Below are positions 1-10,764 of a DNA stretch of 12,619 nt, one piece after another. The first letter of the stretch is position 1. Each line of letters starts with the position of its first letter. The stretch is taken from the NCBI GenBank assembly GCA_018650165.1, contig JABIGM010000011.1, positions 1 to 12,619 on the forward strand, written 5' to 3'. The position numbers and the translations under genes were made by a program. Source of the stretch: Methanobacteriota archaeon. Its GTDB lineage: Archaea > Thermoplasmatota > Poseidoniia > Poseidoniales > Poseidoniaceae. Below the pieces are notes generated by a model that worked only from the letters and a program-made list of their open reading frames with translations, was not told where the DNA came from and did not search any database.

Positions 1-789
1 CAACAATTTTTAGCAAATGGTATCACATTCTTTGTATTCTCTTTGGATGGTCCGATTACAGGAGTAGATAGTCGAGAATTTGTCAGTGATATTCGCGATG
101 AAAGAAGTTCACTAACCGATGATTTGGTGATTGGTAGCGAAGGTTCACTCCAAGTTGCTGGGTTTGCCGCTTACAGCCTAGATACACTAGATGCCATCGC
201 GGAGAATTTACCTATGGCTTTGGCATTCATTTTTATCTCTACAATAATTCTAATTTTCATTCAAGTTCGTAGTGTAATAATTCCAATTAAGGCGATTGTA
301 ATGAACATATTATCGATTTCAGCATCCTTTGGAATGCTGGTTTTCGTATTCCAATGGGGATATGGTGCCGAATTATTGAACTTCACTCCGCAACCAATAG
401 AGGCAACAAATCCGGTGATTATGTTCTGTATCGTATTCGGACTCTCTATGGATTATGAAGTACTAATGCTATCGAGAATTCATGAAGAATGGGAACGAAC
501 AGGAGACAACACTTTGGCTGTAGCTAATGGTTTGCAACGCACTGGTCGCTTGATTACCGGTGCAGCGGCAATCATGGTTGTCGTATTCAGTGCATTTGGT
601 CTCTCATCAGTCATCATTCTCAAGCAGATTGGTCTCGGACTTGCGCTGGCTATCCTAATCGATGCAACTGTCGTTAGGGCACTAGTTGTTCCAGCAACGA
701 TGCGTTTGATGGGCAAGTGGAACTGGTGGAGCCCAAAATGGTTGGGCGGTTCAAAGGATACTGAAAAGGTACAGGAATCCGAGGAATGA
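1..789 (+). CDS. MMPL/RND-family transporter (MmpL/YdfJ-like), C-terminal part; 5' end lies outside the window
   Basis: The frame is open from base 1 (QQFLANGITFFVFSLDGP...). It has multiple TM helices and the MmpL motifs SVIIPIKAIVMNILS, FGLSMDYEV, GLQRTGRLITGAAAIM, IDATVVRALVVPATMRLMGKWNWW. Confidence 0.92.
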   Translation, partial: QQFLANGITFFVFSLDGPITGVDSREFVSDIRDERSSLTDDLVIGSEGSLQVAGFAAYSLDTLDAIAENLPMALAFIFISTIILIFIQVRSVIIPIKAIVMNILSISASFGMLVFVFQWGYGAELLNFTPQPIEATNPVIMFCIVFGLSMDYEVLMLSRIHEEWERTGDNTLAVANGLQRTGRLITGAAAIMVVVFSAFGLSSVIILKQIGLGLALAILIDATVVRALVVPATMRLMGKWNWWSPKWLGGSKDTEKVQESEE

Positions 790-1173
790 ATGGAAGAACA
801 TCAAGGCGATTAGAAGGTCAGCAGCCCTTCCATGCTTGGTTCGATCAACTCTGTCCTTACGAGAATTTCTGCCCCAGCGAGCAGTTATCCACAACAGGGT
901 AATTCCCAATGGTCCAGTGAATCCATGTAAACTACCCGGAATCAATCCAAGACCAGTGTACCACCTTGCTCCAAATGCGATTAGAACCGATAGAATTGCG
1001 GCCTGCAGAATTCTTTCACCTATTTTTTGGTGGCTCTCCAACTCCTCTCGGCGGCTCTCGCCTTTCAACTCCTGACTTTTCCGCTTCCAGCCATATTGCC
1101 ACCACATCCAACTGAGAATTGCTACCGCTGTGATGGGGTGCAGCAATAGGATAACGGCCCTGAGTACCTCCAT
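751..1173 (-). CDS. 4-TM His-rich membrane protein, DUF4079 / cytochrome b561-like
   Basis: 140 aa with four hydrophobic segments and His at H12 (LHP), H48 (SHQKIG), H83 (LHG), H114 (KHG) and H128. The pattern resembles DUF4079/b561-like proteins. Overlaps the MmpL 3' end by 39 bp. Confidence 0.7.
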   Translation of the reverse strand: MEVLRAVILLLHPITAVAILSWMWWQYGWKRKSQELKGESRREELESHQKIGERILQAAILSVLIAFGARWYTGLGLIPGSLHGFTGPLGITLLWITARWGRNSRKDRVDRTKHGRAADLLIALMFFHSFLGFLYLFSIL

Positions 1174-1212: not shown

Positions 1213-1278
1213 ATGAATAGCACAGCCGGTGGCACTAAAGAGGTACGACTAAGCGCCTCACCCCGAAGGGGTGATTGA
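1213..1278 (+). other. Possible 21-aa upstream ORF (MNSTAGGTKEVRLSASPRRGD) whose stop overlaps the PIN gene ATG (TGATG)
   Basis: ATG 1213 lies 26 nt after CTTGAA. TGA 1276-1278 shares its A with ATG 1278. No homology evidence. Confidence 0.25.
1258..1274 (+). promoter_or_regulatory. Perfect inverted repeat TCACCCC-GAA-GGGGTGA whose right arm is the Shine-Dalgarno of the PIN gene
   Basis: 7-bp perfect arms. GGGGTGA lies 3 nt before ATG 1278 and 6 nt before ATG 1281. Confidence 0.65.
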
Positions 1279-4200
1279 TGATGCAAGAGAACAACCTTGC
1301 GGCCTGTCTAAAATCAGGCATGAAGGAGAACCTACCTCCTGCAACTAGGCAACGTCTAGTTGCGAAAACCCCCGAATGGAGAATGCTTGAGAAACCATGG
1401 AAATCTCTTCTTCTCATCGCATTAAACGAATTACAGGTTCCAAACGATGACGACGAGGATTCCCCTTCTACTCCATCCATGATGAGAAACCGAAGAGTAT
1501 CTGGCGGTCGTAGAGGAACACGCAGTTCCAGTGGACCAATGCAGTGGCTTCCCGAAGTTACTGAAGTATTACTTGATGATGGTTCACCGGTCGCTTTCAG
1601 ACTTTCAGTACTGTTAATTCGCAAGACTTTGTTTTCCGATGACTGGGAAGATTCTTGGGACGAAACAGTTGATGATTTACGGAAAACCGCATCTTCGAAA
1701 GGAGTCCATCCTGTCTGGAGTAAAATGGCAGAATCTACTCCTATTCTTGCGCAATTTGCAGCATTCCCTCAAAACGAGCCACAAGAAGAAGAAGCATCTT
1801 CGTTTGATATGGGAGCTGGCCACATCGACCCTTCCAATGTGAAATCATTGGCCAATGCACTTTCAAAATTAGAATCTAATGTTACTAACGCCACCGTAAA
1901 GATGGCAATGCAGAAAGCAAAAGCCCAACTAAATGGAAAAAGGGGATTGCGTGACATCAAGGGCCTCGAAAGTCTTGAAGGAGAAGCCAGTATTGTTAGC
2001 GTTCTTTTGAAAATGCACCTTGGACTAGATGCTACAGATTCATTAAAAGAACTTGCAAAAACAGATTCGGATTTGCAAAAGGCATTTGCAGACTTAATCC
2101 AATTACGAAATGGCGATGCAACAGATTGGGATGCATCCCGTACCTTGAAAGGCGATGATGAGTTGTCACAAGCTAGGATAAAATCCGCTTGGGATCTGAT
2201 GCCAGATAGTGCTGCTGAACTCTCAAGTGACGATTTGAGTAAAGGATTAGCACTCGCGACATCTCCTCAGCAGAAAGAGACCCTTACTTGGTGGCGATTG
2301 GCGGCACTAGTCAAAGAAGGCGCTTCAGACAATGCTCTTGGATTGCTTACCTCACTAACTGTCGAATCGGATGCAGACATGAATGTCTTGGTCCCGCTAG
2401 TCAAAAGATTAGGAGATGGTGCATCTTCTTGGCTTGCTTCTCAAATCGAGAATCTCGCGCAGGATTCACTTTCGGATTTAGTATCCGATGAAGACATAGC
2501 AATTTCTTTACGCGCTGCTGCAGCACGCCGACTTCATGATATGGGTGCCTCTATCGGTATTGACGCATCGATTAATCTCTTTACTCGTGGATTGGATCTC
2601 ACTCGATTAGCTGAGGTCTTACTGGTCGATGAACAAAGGTGTGCAGATAACCCATATTCCACATTACTAGTTGTGCATCTGCTTCCGGCGCGAACAAAGG
2701 GGTGGGATTTCGAAACTATCAGAGGTGCTCGTAGAAACGCCCTTTCAACAGTTGAGCAAGCCGAAGTTCCTAGCGCGTTTTCTCCGGCAAGTAGGGGCCT
2801 AATTTTGATGCTAGATGGAGCTGCTCAATCCGATGACGATTGGGTTGTAAATACTTTAGATAAAAATGGAATAAAGGCATTCAATAACTGTCGCCAAGCA
2901 CTACGCGATGGCGGCGATGGCATTGCAGATTCCAAGGTCCTTGATAACTTAGCAAAGAGTGTTAATGACGCTAAATTGAGTGATGTCGAGTTACGTTTAT
3001 TCAACGCAGTCATCGATACTCTGCGCCTTAATCGTGCATCGCGATTACTTCAATCAGGCAATCCAGGCGGGGTAATCGAATTACTAGATGGCCTTCTTTC
3101 GGGAGAAATTACTGCTATGCCAATGATGCAAGCGGTCAAACATCTTGTTTTGGAATATGACATTGGACTTGCAAATCTAGTTACTTGGTACCAAGAAAAC
3201 GACCCTCAATCTCCATGGCATACCCTTGCACGCGCTGCAGTAAATGTCAACAACGGTGACGAATTAAATGCCGCAAGAGATTATCGTAGAGCCGGTGACC
3301 ACGAAGATTTCGATTATGAGCATCGTATTCTACTTCACCGCAAAGCGATTATCCATCTCGCTCATGCTGAGCAGTGGTCTGAAGCAGTTACCCTTCTAGA
3401 ACAAGAGCCAGCCTTGAAATCTGCTCTAACTAAGCGTTTCCAACTTTATCTAAACGTATCTAATAGTGCTTCGAATAAAAGAAATACAGATGAAGCAACA
3501 CGTATTTTGAAGAATTTCGTAAAGAGAACCGAAATGGTCCAGCAAGAAGATCAGCAAGGAATCAGACAAATGGTTGAGAGGACAATTCATTCCGAAGAAG
3601 AACTTGATGTTCTCCGAAACTATCCTAACTCGCACCCAAGGCCTCTTCCAAGCGAACCATTTGCTGGAAGAGTAAAGGCCACATACAACACACTCCAGAG
3701 AGAAAGGCGCCGTAACCGCCACACCTATGAGAACCGATACGCTCAGGCAATGATTCACGAGCCGTCTGGTGAGGAAATTTACGAAATAGCTCTCGAAGCC
3801 TCGGCTGAAAAGCCACTAGAAGGATTGATGTTGCTGGAAAGAGCCCAGAATTCAGGACGGTTTACAGTACTCGATATCAAGAGACTTGCAGATGCTGAGC
3901 GTAGATTATTCGCAACCCACCGCCATAATTTACCTGTTAAGCACCGTTCATACTTGCGAAACTTAGCTCTAAGTCCACTAGTAATTGTCGATACAAATAT
4001 TCTAATTGATGAATTACAACACAGAATCTCAGATAAATTAGGAATTAATGCTGAAGCAGCCTTAGATATTGGAGGGCGCGGAAGATTCCATAGGATACTA
4101 AAGTCACGCTCACAAGAAGGTAAGATACACATGTGGCTTCCTAAGATTGTTAAAAACGAGTTGAAAGGAATTGCTAGTGACATGAGTAGAATCCGTGCCC

Positions 4201-4661
4201 TATTCGACGACACACTTGTTGGCTCAGATAAATTAGATGAAGTAATGACTTCAGATATTCTTCTTGAAACAGCAGATGAAATAATTACTGATTTCTCAAC
4301 ATGGAAACCAATGAACCTTCATCTTGAAGATGAAGCAGAAGATGAAGACATCAAGAGCAAACTCGAGATGTTTTTGATTGAACACACTGAAATTTACGAC
4401 GAAATAACTGCAATGAAAAGAATGCACGGCCGTGAACCATTACGTACTATTATCGATTCGAAAGACATCTATCCCGAAACCGCAGATCGGGAATTAATGT
4501 GTCTTGCAACCGCTATGTCTAACCAACCATTAGGTGAGATTGGCAGTATCTTAATCGCAACTAGAGATTCTGACTTTGCACTCGTTGCACGAGCAATAGA
4601 AGAGCGATTTGGATTTGGTGTAATTGCAAATAGCCGTAACCTGAATACTTGGTTACGCTGA
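1278..4661 (+). CDS. Large alpha-helical (TPR/solenoid-like) protein with a C-terminal PIN ribonuclease domain
   Basis: Long ORF; start is TTG 1275, ATG 1278 or ATG 1281. The C-terminus has the PIN signature VIVDTNILID (D906), LPKIVKNEL (E962), TADRELM (D1071), ILIATRDSDF (D1098, D1100), numbered on the 1128-aa track ORF. The N-terminal ~900 aa are A/L/D/E-rich with TPR-like stretches (WHTLARAAVNVNNGDELNAARDYRRAG; RKAIIHLAHAEQWSEAVTLLE). Confidence 0.88.
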   Translation: MMQENNLAACLKSGMKENLPPATRQRLVAKTPEWRMLEKPWKSLLLIALNELQVPNDDDEDSPSTPSMMRNRRVSGGRRGTRSSSGPMQWLPEVTEVLLDDGSPVAFRLSVLLIRKTLFSDDWEDSWDETVDDLRKTASSKGVHPVWSKMAESTPILAQFAAFPQNEPQEEEASSFDMGAGHIDPSNVKSLANALSKLESNVTNATVKMAMQKAKAQLNGKRGLRDIKGLESLEGEASIVSVLLKMHLGLDATDSLKELAKTDSDLQKAFADLIQLRNGDATDWDASRTLKGDDELSQARIKSAWDLMPDSAAELSSDDLSKGLALATSPQQKETLTWWRLAALVKEGASDNALGLLTSLTVESDADMNVLVPLVKRLGDGASSWLASQIENLAQDSLSDLVSDEDIAISLRAAAARRLHDMGASIGIDASINLFTRGLDLTRLAEVLLVDEQRCADNPYSTLLVVHLLPARTKGWDFETIRGARRNALSTVEQAEVPSAFSPASRGLILMLDGAAQSDDDWVVNTLDKNGIKAFNNCRQALRDGGDGIADSKVLDNLAKSVNDAKLSDVELRLFNAVIDTLRLNRASRLLQSGNPGGVIELLDGLLSGEITAMPMMQAVKHLVLEYDIGLANLVTWYQENDPQSPWHTLARAAVNVNNGDELNAARDYRRAGDHEDFDYEHRILLHRKAIIHLAHAEQWSEAVTLLEQEPALKSALTKRFQLYLNVSNSASNKRNTDEATRILKNFVKRTEMVQQEDQQGIRQMVERTIHSEEELDVLRNYPNSHPRPLPSEPFAGRVKATYNTLQRERRRNRHTYENRYAQAMIHEPSGEEIYEIALEASAEKPLEGLMLLERAQNSGRFTVLDIKRLADAERRLFATHRHNLPVKHRSYLRNLALSPLVIVDTNILIDELQHRISDKLGINAEAALDIGGRGRFHRILKSRSQEGKIHMWLPKIVKNELKGIASDMSRIRALFDDTLVGSDKLDEVMTSDILLETADEIITDFSTWKPMNLHLEDEAEDEDIKSKLEMFLIEHTEIYDEITAMKRMHGREPLRTIIDSKDIYPETADRELMCLATAMSNQPLGEIGSILIATRDSDFALVARAIEERFGFGVIANSRNLNTWLR

Positions 4662-6370: not shown

Positions 6371-7417
6371 TCAAACGATATCGTGAACAATCCATTCACC
6401 GTCGATCTCTGGCGCAGAAATGCTGACTTCAGCACCACTTGCTAACAGAAGTTGTCTTGGTAATGTTTCAAGTCCAGTAATCAGAAGGCCAGCCAATGCG
6501 TCATGGATCATGACCCAATTTTCAGAAATCCCGTCAGGGGCTGGAACAATACTCGGTACCCCCTCAACACTAACCGAGGCCCAAGGGCGAACAAGTCCAT
6601 CTCCGCCTAAGTCAACAATCATGGAAATCGTCATGGTATTACCATCGAGAACCATTTCGCTAGAAGACGGCATTAGCCTACAATTTTCCGGCAATCCAGT
6701 AAGGCCACCTTCGCCTCTATCTCTTCTTTTAGCGACTAATCTTCTAATCCATGCCAAGAGCACAGTGTGAGAGTACACCATTGAGCGGGATGGCATATCA
6801 GTATTGGTTTCCTTTTCATCTTCCCATCCCCAGTCGCAACCCTCGGATTTGATTGGAAGTAGATTTGGCATCCAAGCCAAATGGCTAGGGCTTGCATCAG
6901 GATGATTTACAGAAACAAATGCAGCCCCTTCACTAAACTTTGAGGCTTTTTTATGAACAATACCTGGAACTGAAATTACCAAGCCGAGAATAATTGCAAG
7001 CGGATCGAGTGCGCTAGGCCAGCTCTCTAGTGGCGCAGCCTCTTTTTCAAACCAAACACCTTCAGCCAAATCATTGCCTAGTCCCAGGCCTTCAGCGAAA
7101 AGTAACGCTTCAGTCCATCCAGTTTTTGAGATGCCGGCATTAACAGCCGCTCGTCCCATCGAACGAGCGGTAGGGGCCAGACTATCGCGGTCATTCAAAC
7201 TTTCAAGCCACTCACGTAAATTTTGGTCACCATCGCCAAAAGAACGCCTTCCGGTTTTGGAAATATCAGATAGCCAAACCTGTTCCTGACGTGCTCGCTC
7301 ACTATCGCTTAAGCCGAGTTGTTGTTGTAGAGTTTCAAGCATTATTGCACCATCTCGAGAAAGTGCACCATCTGACCAAGCCAGTGCTAGGCCGTGCTCG
7401 AACGGGGTAGGGGCCAT
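6371..7417 (-). CDS. Hypothetical protein with an N-terminal half-TerB-like helical module
   Basis: 348-aa ORF. GGAGG SD precedes the ATG, which lies 4 nt after the upstream gene's stop (operon). N-terminus is FEHGLALAWSDGALSRDGAIMLETLQQQLGLS; the remainder is unrecognised. Confidence 0.82.
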   Translation of the reverse strand: MAPTPFEHGLALAWSDGALSRDGAIMLETLQQQLGLSDSERARQEQVWLSDISKTGRRSFGDGDQNLREWLESLNDRDSLAPTARSMGRAAVNAGISKTGWTEALLFAEGLGLGNDLAEGVWFEKEAAPLESWPSALDPLAIILGLVISVPGIVHKKASKFSEGAAFVSVNHPDASPSHLAWMPNLLPIKSEGCDWGWEDEKETNTDMPSRSMVYSHTVLLAWIRRLVAKRRDRGEGGLTGLPENCRLMPSSSEMVLDGNTMTISMIVDLGGDGLVRPWASVSVEGVPSIVPAPDGISENWVMIHDALAGLLITGLETLPRQLLLASGAEVSISAPEIDGEWIVHDIV

Positions 7418-7421
7418 CGAA

Positions 7422-7859
7422 TCATCCTCCGATTATTTCTCGAACTAATTCGAGATGCCTTTCGAAAGATAATCCAAGTTCGCCTCTTTTTCGAGCCAAT
7501 AATTCAACCTCAGAGGGGTCTAAAATATCATCAACCCAAACGGTTTCTAGCAGAAGTTTGTAGGTTGCTTCAGCACGATTAGTTGGCTCAGAGGTTGAAC
7601 TTTCAAGGGCAGGAACATCATCATCATCAAACGATATAGCCATCTCTTGGAATGAGTCATCTTCATCATCAGTGAACGCTGAAAGCAGGTCATCATCATC
7701 TTCGAAAGCCGAAAGCGCATCACCGTCATCATCTTCGAAAGCGGCCAGTGCATCATCTGAACTACTTTCAGGCTTACTTGAGGTAACTTGTAACTCAGCA
7801 AATGGGTCGATGTCATCCTCGTCATCCTCTGATGGGGCAGTTGTATCAAACGGGAACAT
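7422..7859 (-). CDS. Highly acidic low-complexity protein with a C-terminal half-TerB-like helical module
   Basis: ATG 7859 is preceded by SD AGGTGA at 5 nt (in-frame GTG 7868 is an alternative start). The N-terminal two-thirds are D/E-rich; the C-terminus is YKLLLETVWVDDILDPSEVELLARKRGELGLSFERHLELV. Confidence 0.82.
   Translation of the reverse strand: MFPFDTTAPSEDDEDDIDPFAELQVTSSKPESSSDDALAAFEDDDGDALSAFEDDDDLLSAFTDDEDDSFQEMAISFDDDDVPALESSTSEPTNRAEATYKLLLETVWVDDILDPSEVELLARKRGELGLSFERHLELVREIIGG
7656..7757 (-). repeat. Three imperfect tandem coding repeats D-x-L-[AS]-A-F-[ET]-D-D-[DE]
   Basis: DDALAAFEDDD / GDALSAFEDDD / DLLSAFTDDEDD. The nucleotide core GCTTTCGAAGATGATGA is repeated on the minus strand. 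Confidence 0.8.
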
Positions 7860-7895
7860 TCTATTCACCTAAATACCCGAAAACAACTCAACTAA

Positions 7896-10718: not shown

Positions 10719-10725
10719 GTGCCGC

Positions 10726-10740
10726 CACCCCATAGGGGTG
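10726..10740. promoter_or_regulatory. Intergenic inverted repeat CACCCC-ATA-GGGGTG between the radA stop and the ftsZ promoter
   Basis: Perfect 6-bp arms, the same motif as at 1258-1274. Function (hairpin/terminator or operator) is unknown. Confidence 0.55.
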
Positions 10741-10764
10741 AGGAGACGATTGTCAAACCCTACC

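Follow-up and report, generated by a model that had tools for sequence, protein, structure and literature searches.

The stretch of DNA analysed here (12,619 nucleotides (nt) of contig JABIGM010000011.1, assembly GCA_018650165.1; below, the window) comes from a member of the Poseidoniales. This order, also known as Marine Group II, ranks among the most abundant archaea of the plankton and has no cultured representative that we know of. The window contains a large gene whose predicted product joins a helical scaffold of about 900 residues to a C-terminal PIN nuclease domain with intact active-site motifs (Table 1). We refer to it as the PIN-scaffold gene. It lies between a divergent gene for a DUF4079-like membrane protein and a convergent gene for an isocitrate/isopropylmalate dehydrogenase. 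Beyond these are genes for OsmC, two unknown proteins, a helix-turn-helix regulator, FtsZ and RadA.

The open reading frame (ORF) of the PIN-scaffold gene opens with a TTG at 1275, and in-frame ATG codons follow at 1278 and 1281. Because the N-termini of orthologues align with M2/M3 of the protein, one of the two ATG codons is the likely start. Searches of Pfam and NCBIfam with the protein returned nothing above threshold, and when the PDB was searched by sequence with two profiles, one for the full protein and one for the PIN region, the matches were confined to antibody light chains and the neck repeat of a lectin, none of them meaningful. The database entries for named relatives all read "hypothetical protein" and belong to Candidatus Poseidoniales or Poseidoniaceae. 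As far as we could find, the family has neither a name nor a Pfam model nor any literature, and no characterised family was matched. This agrees with an initial annotation of the locus, which had described a new protein combining an extensive helical scaffold with an intact PIN domain.

The C-terminal 300 residues were folded with an alignment of 32 sequences spanning the order. The resulting model (predicted local distance difference test (pLDDT) 91.1, predicted template modelling score (pTM) 0.89) has the three-layer alpha/beta/alpha architecture of PIN domains. In an exhaustive structural comparison, residues 901-1121 fell on VapC toxins, followed by Nmd4 (8.6), Nob1 (8.1), EST1A/SMG6 (7.0) and Utp23/Utp24/Rrp44 (~6.5). 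The top rows of a Foldseek search were SMG6 and VapC PIN domains, with probabilities of 0.87-0.96 and non-significant E-values. Matches of the 32 orthologues to Pfam families of the PIN clan were all sub-threshold (PIN_12 in 8 orthologues, PIN in 6, PIN_4 in 2 and PIN_3 in 1), so that the assignment is based on predicted structure and motif conservation. According to the models, the domain is a PIN domain of the VapC-like structural group. Helices ~957-1050 sit between strands 2 and 3 in both the C-terminal and the full-length model; long helical insertions had been noted in this domain from the sequence. A two-copy prediction of the same 300 residues scored 0.00 against a mark of 0.42 and is evidence neither way.

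The active-site residues lie in the motifs VIVDTN (D906), NEL (E962), YPETAD (E1068, D1071) and ATRDSDF (D1098, D1100). D906, D1071, D1098 and D1100 were invariant in 32 orthologues with identities down to ~30%. The four canonical acidic residues occur in the canonical order, E1068 is invariant as well, and E962 is retained in at least 90-96% of the orthologues (identities down to 27-30%), so that the acidic positions are as intact as the initial annotation had claimed. We also aligned 26 full-length sequences from across the order, with identities down to 27%. Conservation reached at least 96% at 45 positions, and 17 of these were in the PIN domain (D906, T907, N908, L910, E962, F1033, R1057, I1065, P1067, E1068, D1071, G1090, A1095, D1098, D1100, F1101 and G1113). 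Judged from the alignments, selection has kept the catalytic centre above all else in the protein. This conservation favours an active nuclease over a pseudo-nuclease.

A full-length AlphaFold2 (AF2) model (mean pLDDT 79.6, pTM 0.44) contains about 45 helices and a single long beta-hairpin in residues 1-900, followed by an alpha/beta domain from residue 900. Segments 57-86, 168-175, 812-816 and 927-935 are disordered in this model. The initial annotation had described the N-terminal ~900 residues as helical and TPR-like. The model upholds the helical scaffold; repeats did not emerge from the sequence. All hhalign comparisons, segment against segment and N-terminus against itself, gave a probability of 3% or less, and no Pfam repeat family was detected in the scaffold. 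A language-model Atlas search with residues 90-830 gave weak matches (0.91-0.92) to TPR, DUF5717 and BDI_1685-like clusters, which lie inside the stated false-positive range, and the structural match values for the scaffold were below the tool's own reliability level for helical repeats. "TPR-like solenoid" seems a reasonable description of the predicted scaffold, homology to TPR not being demonstrated.

The best-conserved N-terminal blocks, ~530-730 and 780-800, fall in the TPR-like superhelix. Conserved N-terminal residues are mainly structural (L, W, G, P, A), with a few arginines including R79. This arginine is part of the first of two basic patches, R71-R83 and R809-H816, both of which had been picked out at the outset and were found again. 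An acidic run precedes patch R71-R83. Three arginines of this patch, R73, R79 and R80, do not vary in the family-level alignment, and for R79 conservation across the order is 96% or more. We considered and dropped the idea that the scaffold holds another active site, since the His, Asp and Glu residues around positions 620-705 that are invariant at family level are not conserved across the order.

Table 1. Features of the PIN-scaffold gene and its product in the window
Feature	Residues	Position (nt)	Strand	Basis or remark
Palindrome TCACCCC-GAA-GGGGTGA		1258..1274	+	3 nt ahead of ATG 1278
PIN-scaffold coding sequence	1127/1128 in total (1128 from TTG)	1278..4661	+	Stop codon 4659-4661
N-terminal helical segment	1-56	1275..1442	+	AF2 pLDDT 72-83
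Disordered linker, acidic then basic	57-86	1443..1532	+	pLDDT <50
Basic patch 1, in disordered linker	R71-R83	1485-1523	+	
All-helical region, no assignable known domain	88-429	1536..2561	+	AF2 model; no Pfam match; no internal repeats
TPR-like helical superhelix	~430-830	2562..3764	+	
Beta-hairpin in TPR-like superhelix	750-772	3522-3590	+	
Basic patch 2, in TPR-like superhelix	R809-H816	3699-3722	+	
Helical linker/cap, packed ahead of PIN core	831-899	3765..3971	+	C-terminal model pLDDT 89-95
PIN nuclease domain	900-1128	3972..4658	+	Predicted structure, motif conservation, sub-threshold Pfam PIN-clan matches
Helical insertion in PIN domain	~963-1066	4161-4472	+	~100 residues between strand 2/E962 and strand 3/D1071
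PIN active site	D906 (TN907-908), E962, E1068/D1071, T1096-x-D1098-x-D1100-F			

A word-indexed search returned 325 relatives of the PIN-scaffold protein. An exhaustive search of 1.84 billion representatives with a HMMER profile gave 226 matches, and the 150 listed were full-length orthologues or their fragments. The profile matched 181 of 201 sampled Poseidoniales genomes (98/99, 2/2 and 80/99 in the individual families), and among high-quality genomes the gene was present in 56 of 61. Nearly all matched genomes carry it as one unbroken ORF of ~1100-1190 codons; the genome from which the window derives has one copy. The ORF at 1278-4661 proposed by the initial annotation, whose residue numbering fits the TTG start, is thus genuine. 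Outside the order, the gene was not detected in ~240 other Thermoplasmatota genomes, neither in the sister order (0/8), which belongs to the same class, nor in any other family sampled from the phylum, and the phage, plasmid and IMG/VR viral-contig collections contained no relatives.

Most genomes without a profile match belonged to two genera (0/14 and 0/2), whose genomes are otherwise 90-98% complete. In one of these genera, the DUF4079-like gene and a nitronate-monooxygenase-like (NMO) gene are only 47 bp apart, indicating a clean deletion of the PIN-scaffold gene. In the other genus, the syntenic region is rearranged and the gene is also gone. A 1218-residue ORF near the syntenic site of a gene-less genome turned out to encode a class II ribonucleotide reductase, unrelated to the PIN-scaffold protein. 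As two genera do without it, the gene is not essential, and by its distribution it is near-core yet dispensable. The phyletic pattern, which had been left between core and patchy, is near-core, syntenic and vertical, and confined to Poseidoniales.

Only 101 nt and 8 nt separate the gene from its neighbours, both of which are encoded on the other strand. There is therefore no room for an antitoxin gene, the absence of which had been noted earlier. The gene order common to both main families consists of a gene for a ~340-residue unknown protein (+), the ~156-residue DUF4079-like gene (-), the PIN-scaffold gene (+), and a dehydrogenase or NMO gene (-), with genes for a NUDIX protein, a cobalamin adenosyltransferase and a SPOUT methyltransferase farther upstream. 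No defence or mobile-element genes adjoin the PIN-scaffold gene. Judged by gene order, the locus is part of the stable core chromosome and not an island. In the window, radA and ftsZ are 5-7 kb away, and this downstream block is linked to the gene in the window's own family alone, its place being taken by NMO and other genes in the second main family. The DUF4079-like gene (window 751-1173, minus strand; ~140-168 residues) is the divergent partner of the PIN-scaffold gene in both main families, and is kept beside the deletion scar in the genus that lacks it. Two adjoining genes at window 6371-7868 (minus strand) encode proteins of 148 and 348 residues without a Pfam match.

Comparison with known PIN proteins set the PIN-scaffold protein apart from each of them. 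VapC has ~130 residues and an antitoxin, whereas the PIN-scaffold protein has ~1128 residues and no antitoxin gene. Unlike VapC, it also has a ~100-residue helical insertion after strand 2 and a ~900-residue N-terminal scaffold, and is encoded by a chromosomal near-core gene. A VapBC toxin is excluded by size, the missing antitoxin and the core distribution. A search of 31 Poseidoniales genomes found practically no classical VapC genes (PF01850), the only weak matches coinciding with the Nob1 locus, and by this search these genomes seem to be without VapBC toxin-antitoxin systems.

The DUF4935 family (PIN_12, PF16289) has been placed in the VapC-like group, its genes being monocistronic and its PIN domain having a long helical insert that follows strand S2 (Matelska et al., 2017, PMC5499597). 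Both features are common to the PIN-scaffold protein. PIN_12 was also the most frequent Pfam match, always sub-threshold (8/32 orthologues, best E 0.0078), and an ESM Atlas PIN_12/PIN_8 cluster aligned structurally with the PIN domain at a template modelling (TM) score of 0.41 over 165 residues. However, DUF4935 proteins are ~350 residues long and mostly bacterial, with an N-terminal PIN domain followed by an alpha/beta region, whereas the PIN domain studied here is C-terminal and follows a giant scaffold. A comparison by hhalign with three archaeal PIN_12 proteins gave a probability of 5%, which is not significant, although the D and E motifs were aligned correctly. PIN_12 membership is not established by these sequence comparisons.

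SMG6/SMG5/EST1 and yeast Nmd4 have no detectable sequence homology to the PIN-scaffold protein, and VapC-type PIN domains match its PIN domain better. There is also no phyletic continuity with SMG6-type proteins, the family being confined to one archaeal order. No Pfam match to the N-terminal domain of SMG5/6/7 or EST1, a 14-3-3-like TPR domain, was obtained, and no such chain was among the N-terminal structural matches, the N-terminal domains not having been folded and searched separately. The likeness to SMG6 is architectural only, as the initial annotation had cautioned, over a generic PIN fold.

Nob1 consists of a PIN_6 domain and a zinc ribbon in ~160-240 residues; the PIN-scaffold protein is seven times larger and matches neither PIN_6 nor a zinc ribbon. 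Both the window's own genome (C48:7274-7510) and 12/12 high-quality relatives have a separate Nob1 (PIN_6) gene, which rules out a replacement of Nob1. Nob1 and the PIN-scaffold protein were the sole PIN-type proteins found in the Poseidoniales genomes searched. A helpful mechanistic parallel is PRORP, in which an alpha-solenoid places a PIN-like nuclease on structured RNA. PRORP combines PPR and NYN with a central zinc module, whereas the PIN-scaffold protein has no PPR match, a weak NYN match in 1/32 orthologues and no zinc module. A protein-only RNase P replacement is ruled out by the presence of RNase P RNA in the window's genome (223.7 bits). Compensation for a missing exosome is ruled out as well, because RNase PH genes are present: all 5 genomes checked have an adjoining RNase PH pair (Rrp41/Rrp42-like) and a third RNase PH gene. 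RNase R/II (RNB domain) was seen in two genomes checked of the window's own family (G000:C60:10984-12048 and G003:C1:405328-406422) and not found in three of the second family. Its presence does not track the PIN-scaffold gene.

On balance, we lean towards the view that the PIN-scaffold protein is a Poseidoniales-specific, scaffold-guided and metal-dependent endonuclease, probably acting on RNA, with a non-essential housekeeping role in processing, turnover or quality control. The PIN endonuclease, which is predicted to be catalytically competent, would be permanently tethered to the partly TPR-like helical scaffold. RNA is the presumed substrate because characterised VapC-group PIN domains, nearly without exception, cut RNA. 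The scaffold, together with the two conserved and flexible Arg-rich patches, would select or dock a substrate or a partner complex. The covalent scaffold and the patches, and not an antitoxin, would restrain the nuclease and govern substrate access.

Several observations weigh against this proposal. The arrangement of the domains relative to each other is uncertain at the pTM of the full-length model, and membership in the Pfam PIN families remained sub-threshold (PIN_12 scored 14.1 bits, with 32 as the cut-off). Neighbouring genes offer no clue to function, and the loss in two genera suits an accessory role as well as one in quality control. A more specific version of the proposal, which we consider unlikely as it stands, is that mRNA surveillance of the SMG6/Nmd4 type arose convergently in these archaea, with the PIN-scaffold protein docking to ribosomes or messenger ribonucleoprotein particles via the TPR-like body and Arg-rich linkers and cutting aberrant or regulated transcripts. 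If true, it would amount to a new RNA quality-control pathway in a very abundant archaeal group of the surface ocean.

The initial annotation had offered RNA processing or quality control and an antiviral function as alternatives, and the data separated the two. A large repeat sensor combined with a nuclease effector is a common layout in defence, and the TPR-like scaffold could in principle sense a viral protein and thereby unleash the PIN RNase, with abortive infection as the outcome. PIN_12/DUF4935, the named Pfam family that comes nearest, has monocistronic genes and a patchy distribution (PMC5499597; 9/201 genomes of the phylum), the PIN-scaffold gene is dispensable in two genera, and in the window's own genus a palindrome overlaps the ribosome-binding site and could hold expression low. 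Even with these points in its favour, such a single-gene sensor-effector appears improbable. The gene is near-universal in the order, single-copy and fixed in position among metabolic genes, and homology extends over the full length down to 27% identity. A PADLOC search (PADLOC-DB v2) of the protein matched 0 families, the phage, plasmid and viral-contig collections contained no copies, and the neighbourhood has no defence or mobile-element genes. The near-core, single-copy and vertical pattern, together with the lack of PADLOC matches and viral copies, therefore favours a housekeeping role on RNA, which leaves the first of the two alternatives standing. That the housekeeping task might be a single maturation step, with the protein acting as a dedicated endonuclease for one stable RNA (rRNA or tRNA) peculiar to Poseidoniales, is compatible with the core-like distribution and with the frequent cleavage of tRNA or rRNA by VapC-type PINs (PMC5499597). 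We nevertheless regard it as unlikely: Nob1 and RNase P RNA are in place, and the clean loss from genomes that are 90-98% complete speaks against an essential step.

DNA was considered as the substrate, because nucleases of the FEN type belong to the PIN-like superfamily (PMC5499597) and because radA and ftsZ are nearby in the window. A role of the scaffolded PIN domain in DNA repair, replication or the maintenance of chromosomes, with structured or flapped DNA as the target of cleavage, is distinctly unlikely, given that the structural neighbours are overwhelmingly RNA-cleaving PINs of the VapC, Nob1, Nmd4 and SMG6 types, that H3TH or other FEN features were not detected, and that the linkage to radA/ftsZ is limited to one family. 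Some PIN domains on scaffolds are inactive adaptors, and two of these, SMG5 and Utp23, were among the weaker structural matches. A catalytically dead PIN serving as a structural or adaptor module is still very improbable here, since conservation throughout the order extends to all four canonical acidic residues as well as to E1068 and D1100, and no other cluster of the protein is as well conserved. Finally, the SMG6 PIN domain topped the Foldseek list (2hwx, E 0.19, probability 0.87), and SMG6 has the same layout, a helical scaffold and then a C-terminal PIN. True homology to SMG5/SMG6/EST1, which would make the protein an archaeal precursor of the endonuclease of nonsense-mediated mRNA decay, is scarcely credible all the same: the E-values are not significant, SMG5/6/7 and EST1 chains are missing from the N-terminal matches, the window's protein matches neither EST1 nor PIN_4 in Pfam, and the family is limited to one order of Thermoplasmatota.

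The PIN-scaffold protein probably carries out a distinct nucleolytic task, because VapBC is essentially missing from these genomes and Nob1 is the only other PIN-type protein found in them. With 1,100 codons, strong conservation and restriction to one order, its gene is a marker of lineage-specific cell biology. The combination of a giant TPR-like scaffold with a PIN domain and no antitoxin would add a new architecture to the well-known PIN superfamily, and would provide a prokaryotic model in which to study the possible restraint of a potentially toxic PIN nuclease by a covalent scaffold instead of an antitoxin.

The palindrome immediately upstream of the gene is shared by same-genus loci (L002-L007), in which the stems are kept and the loop varies (TCACCCC-N3/4-GGGGTGA). 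It can form a hairpin with a 7-bp stem (minimum free energy -16 kcal/mol for 1245-1300, z -2.49). Its right arm resembles a Shine-Dalgarno sequence, and relatives without the palindrome carry AGGGAGGGGTGA at that site. The palindrome would either mask the ribosome-binding site as a hairpin in the RNA or serve as an operator that overlaps with the transcription start. A second copy, CTCACCCC-TAT-GGGGTG, is located on the minus strand at window 10725-10741, between the radA stop (10765) and the ftsZ start (10686), ~24 nt past the former and ~40 nt ahead of the latter. It could act as a terminator or processing hairpin, or as a shared operator. Same-genus loci also share a conserved box, AGCCGGTGGC(T/A)CTAAAGAGGT, at window 1215-1250, ~25-50 nt ahead of the start, which may represent the BRE/TATA region. 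The annotated protein of some relatives includes an in-frame translation of this box, which extends the N-terminus by SAGGSKEV.

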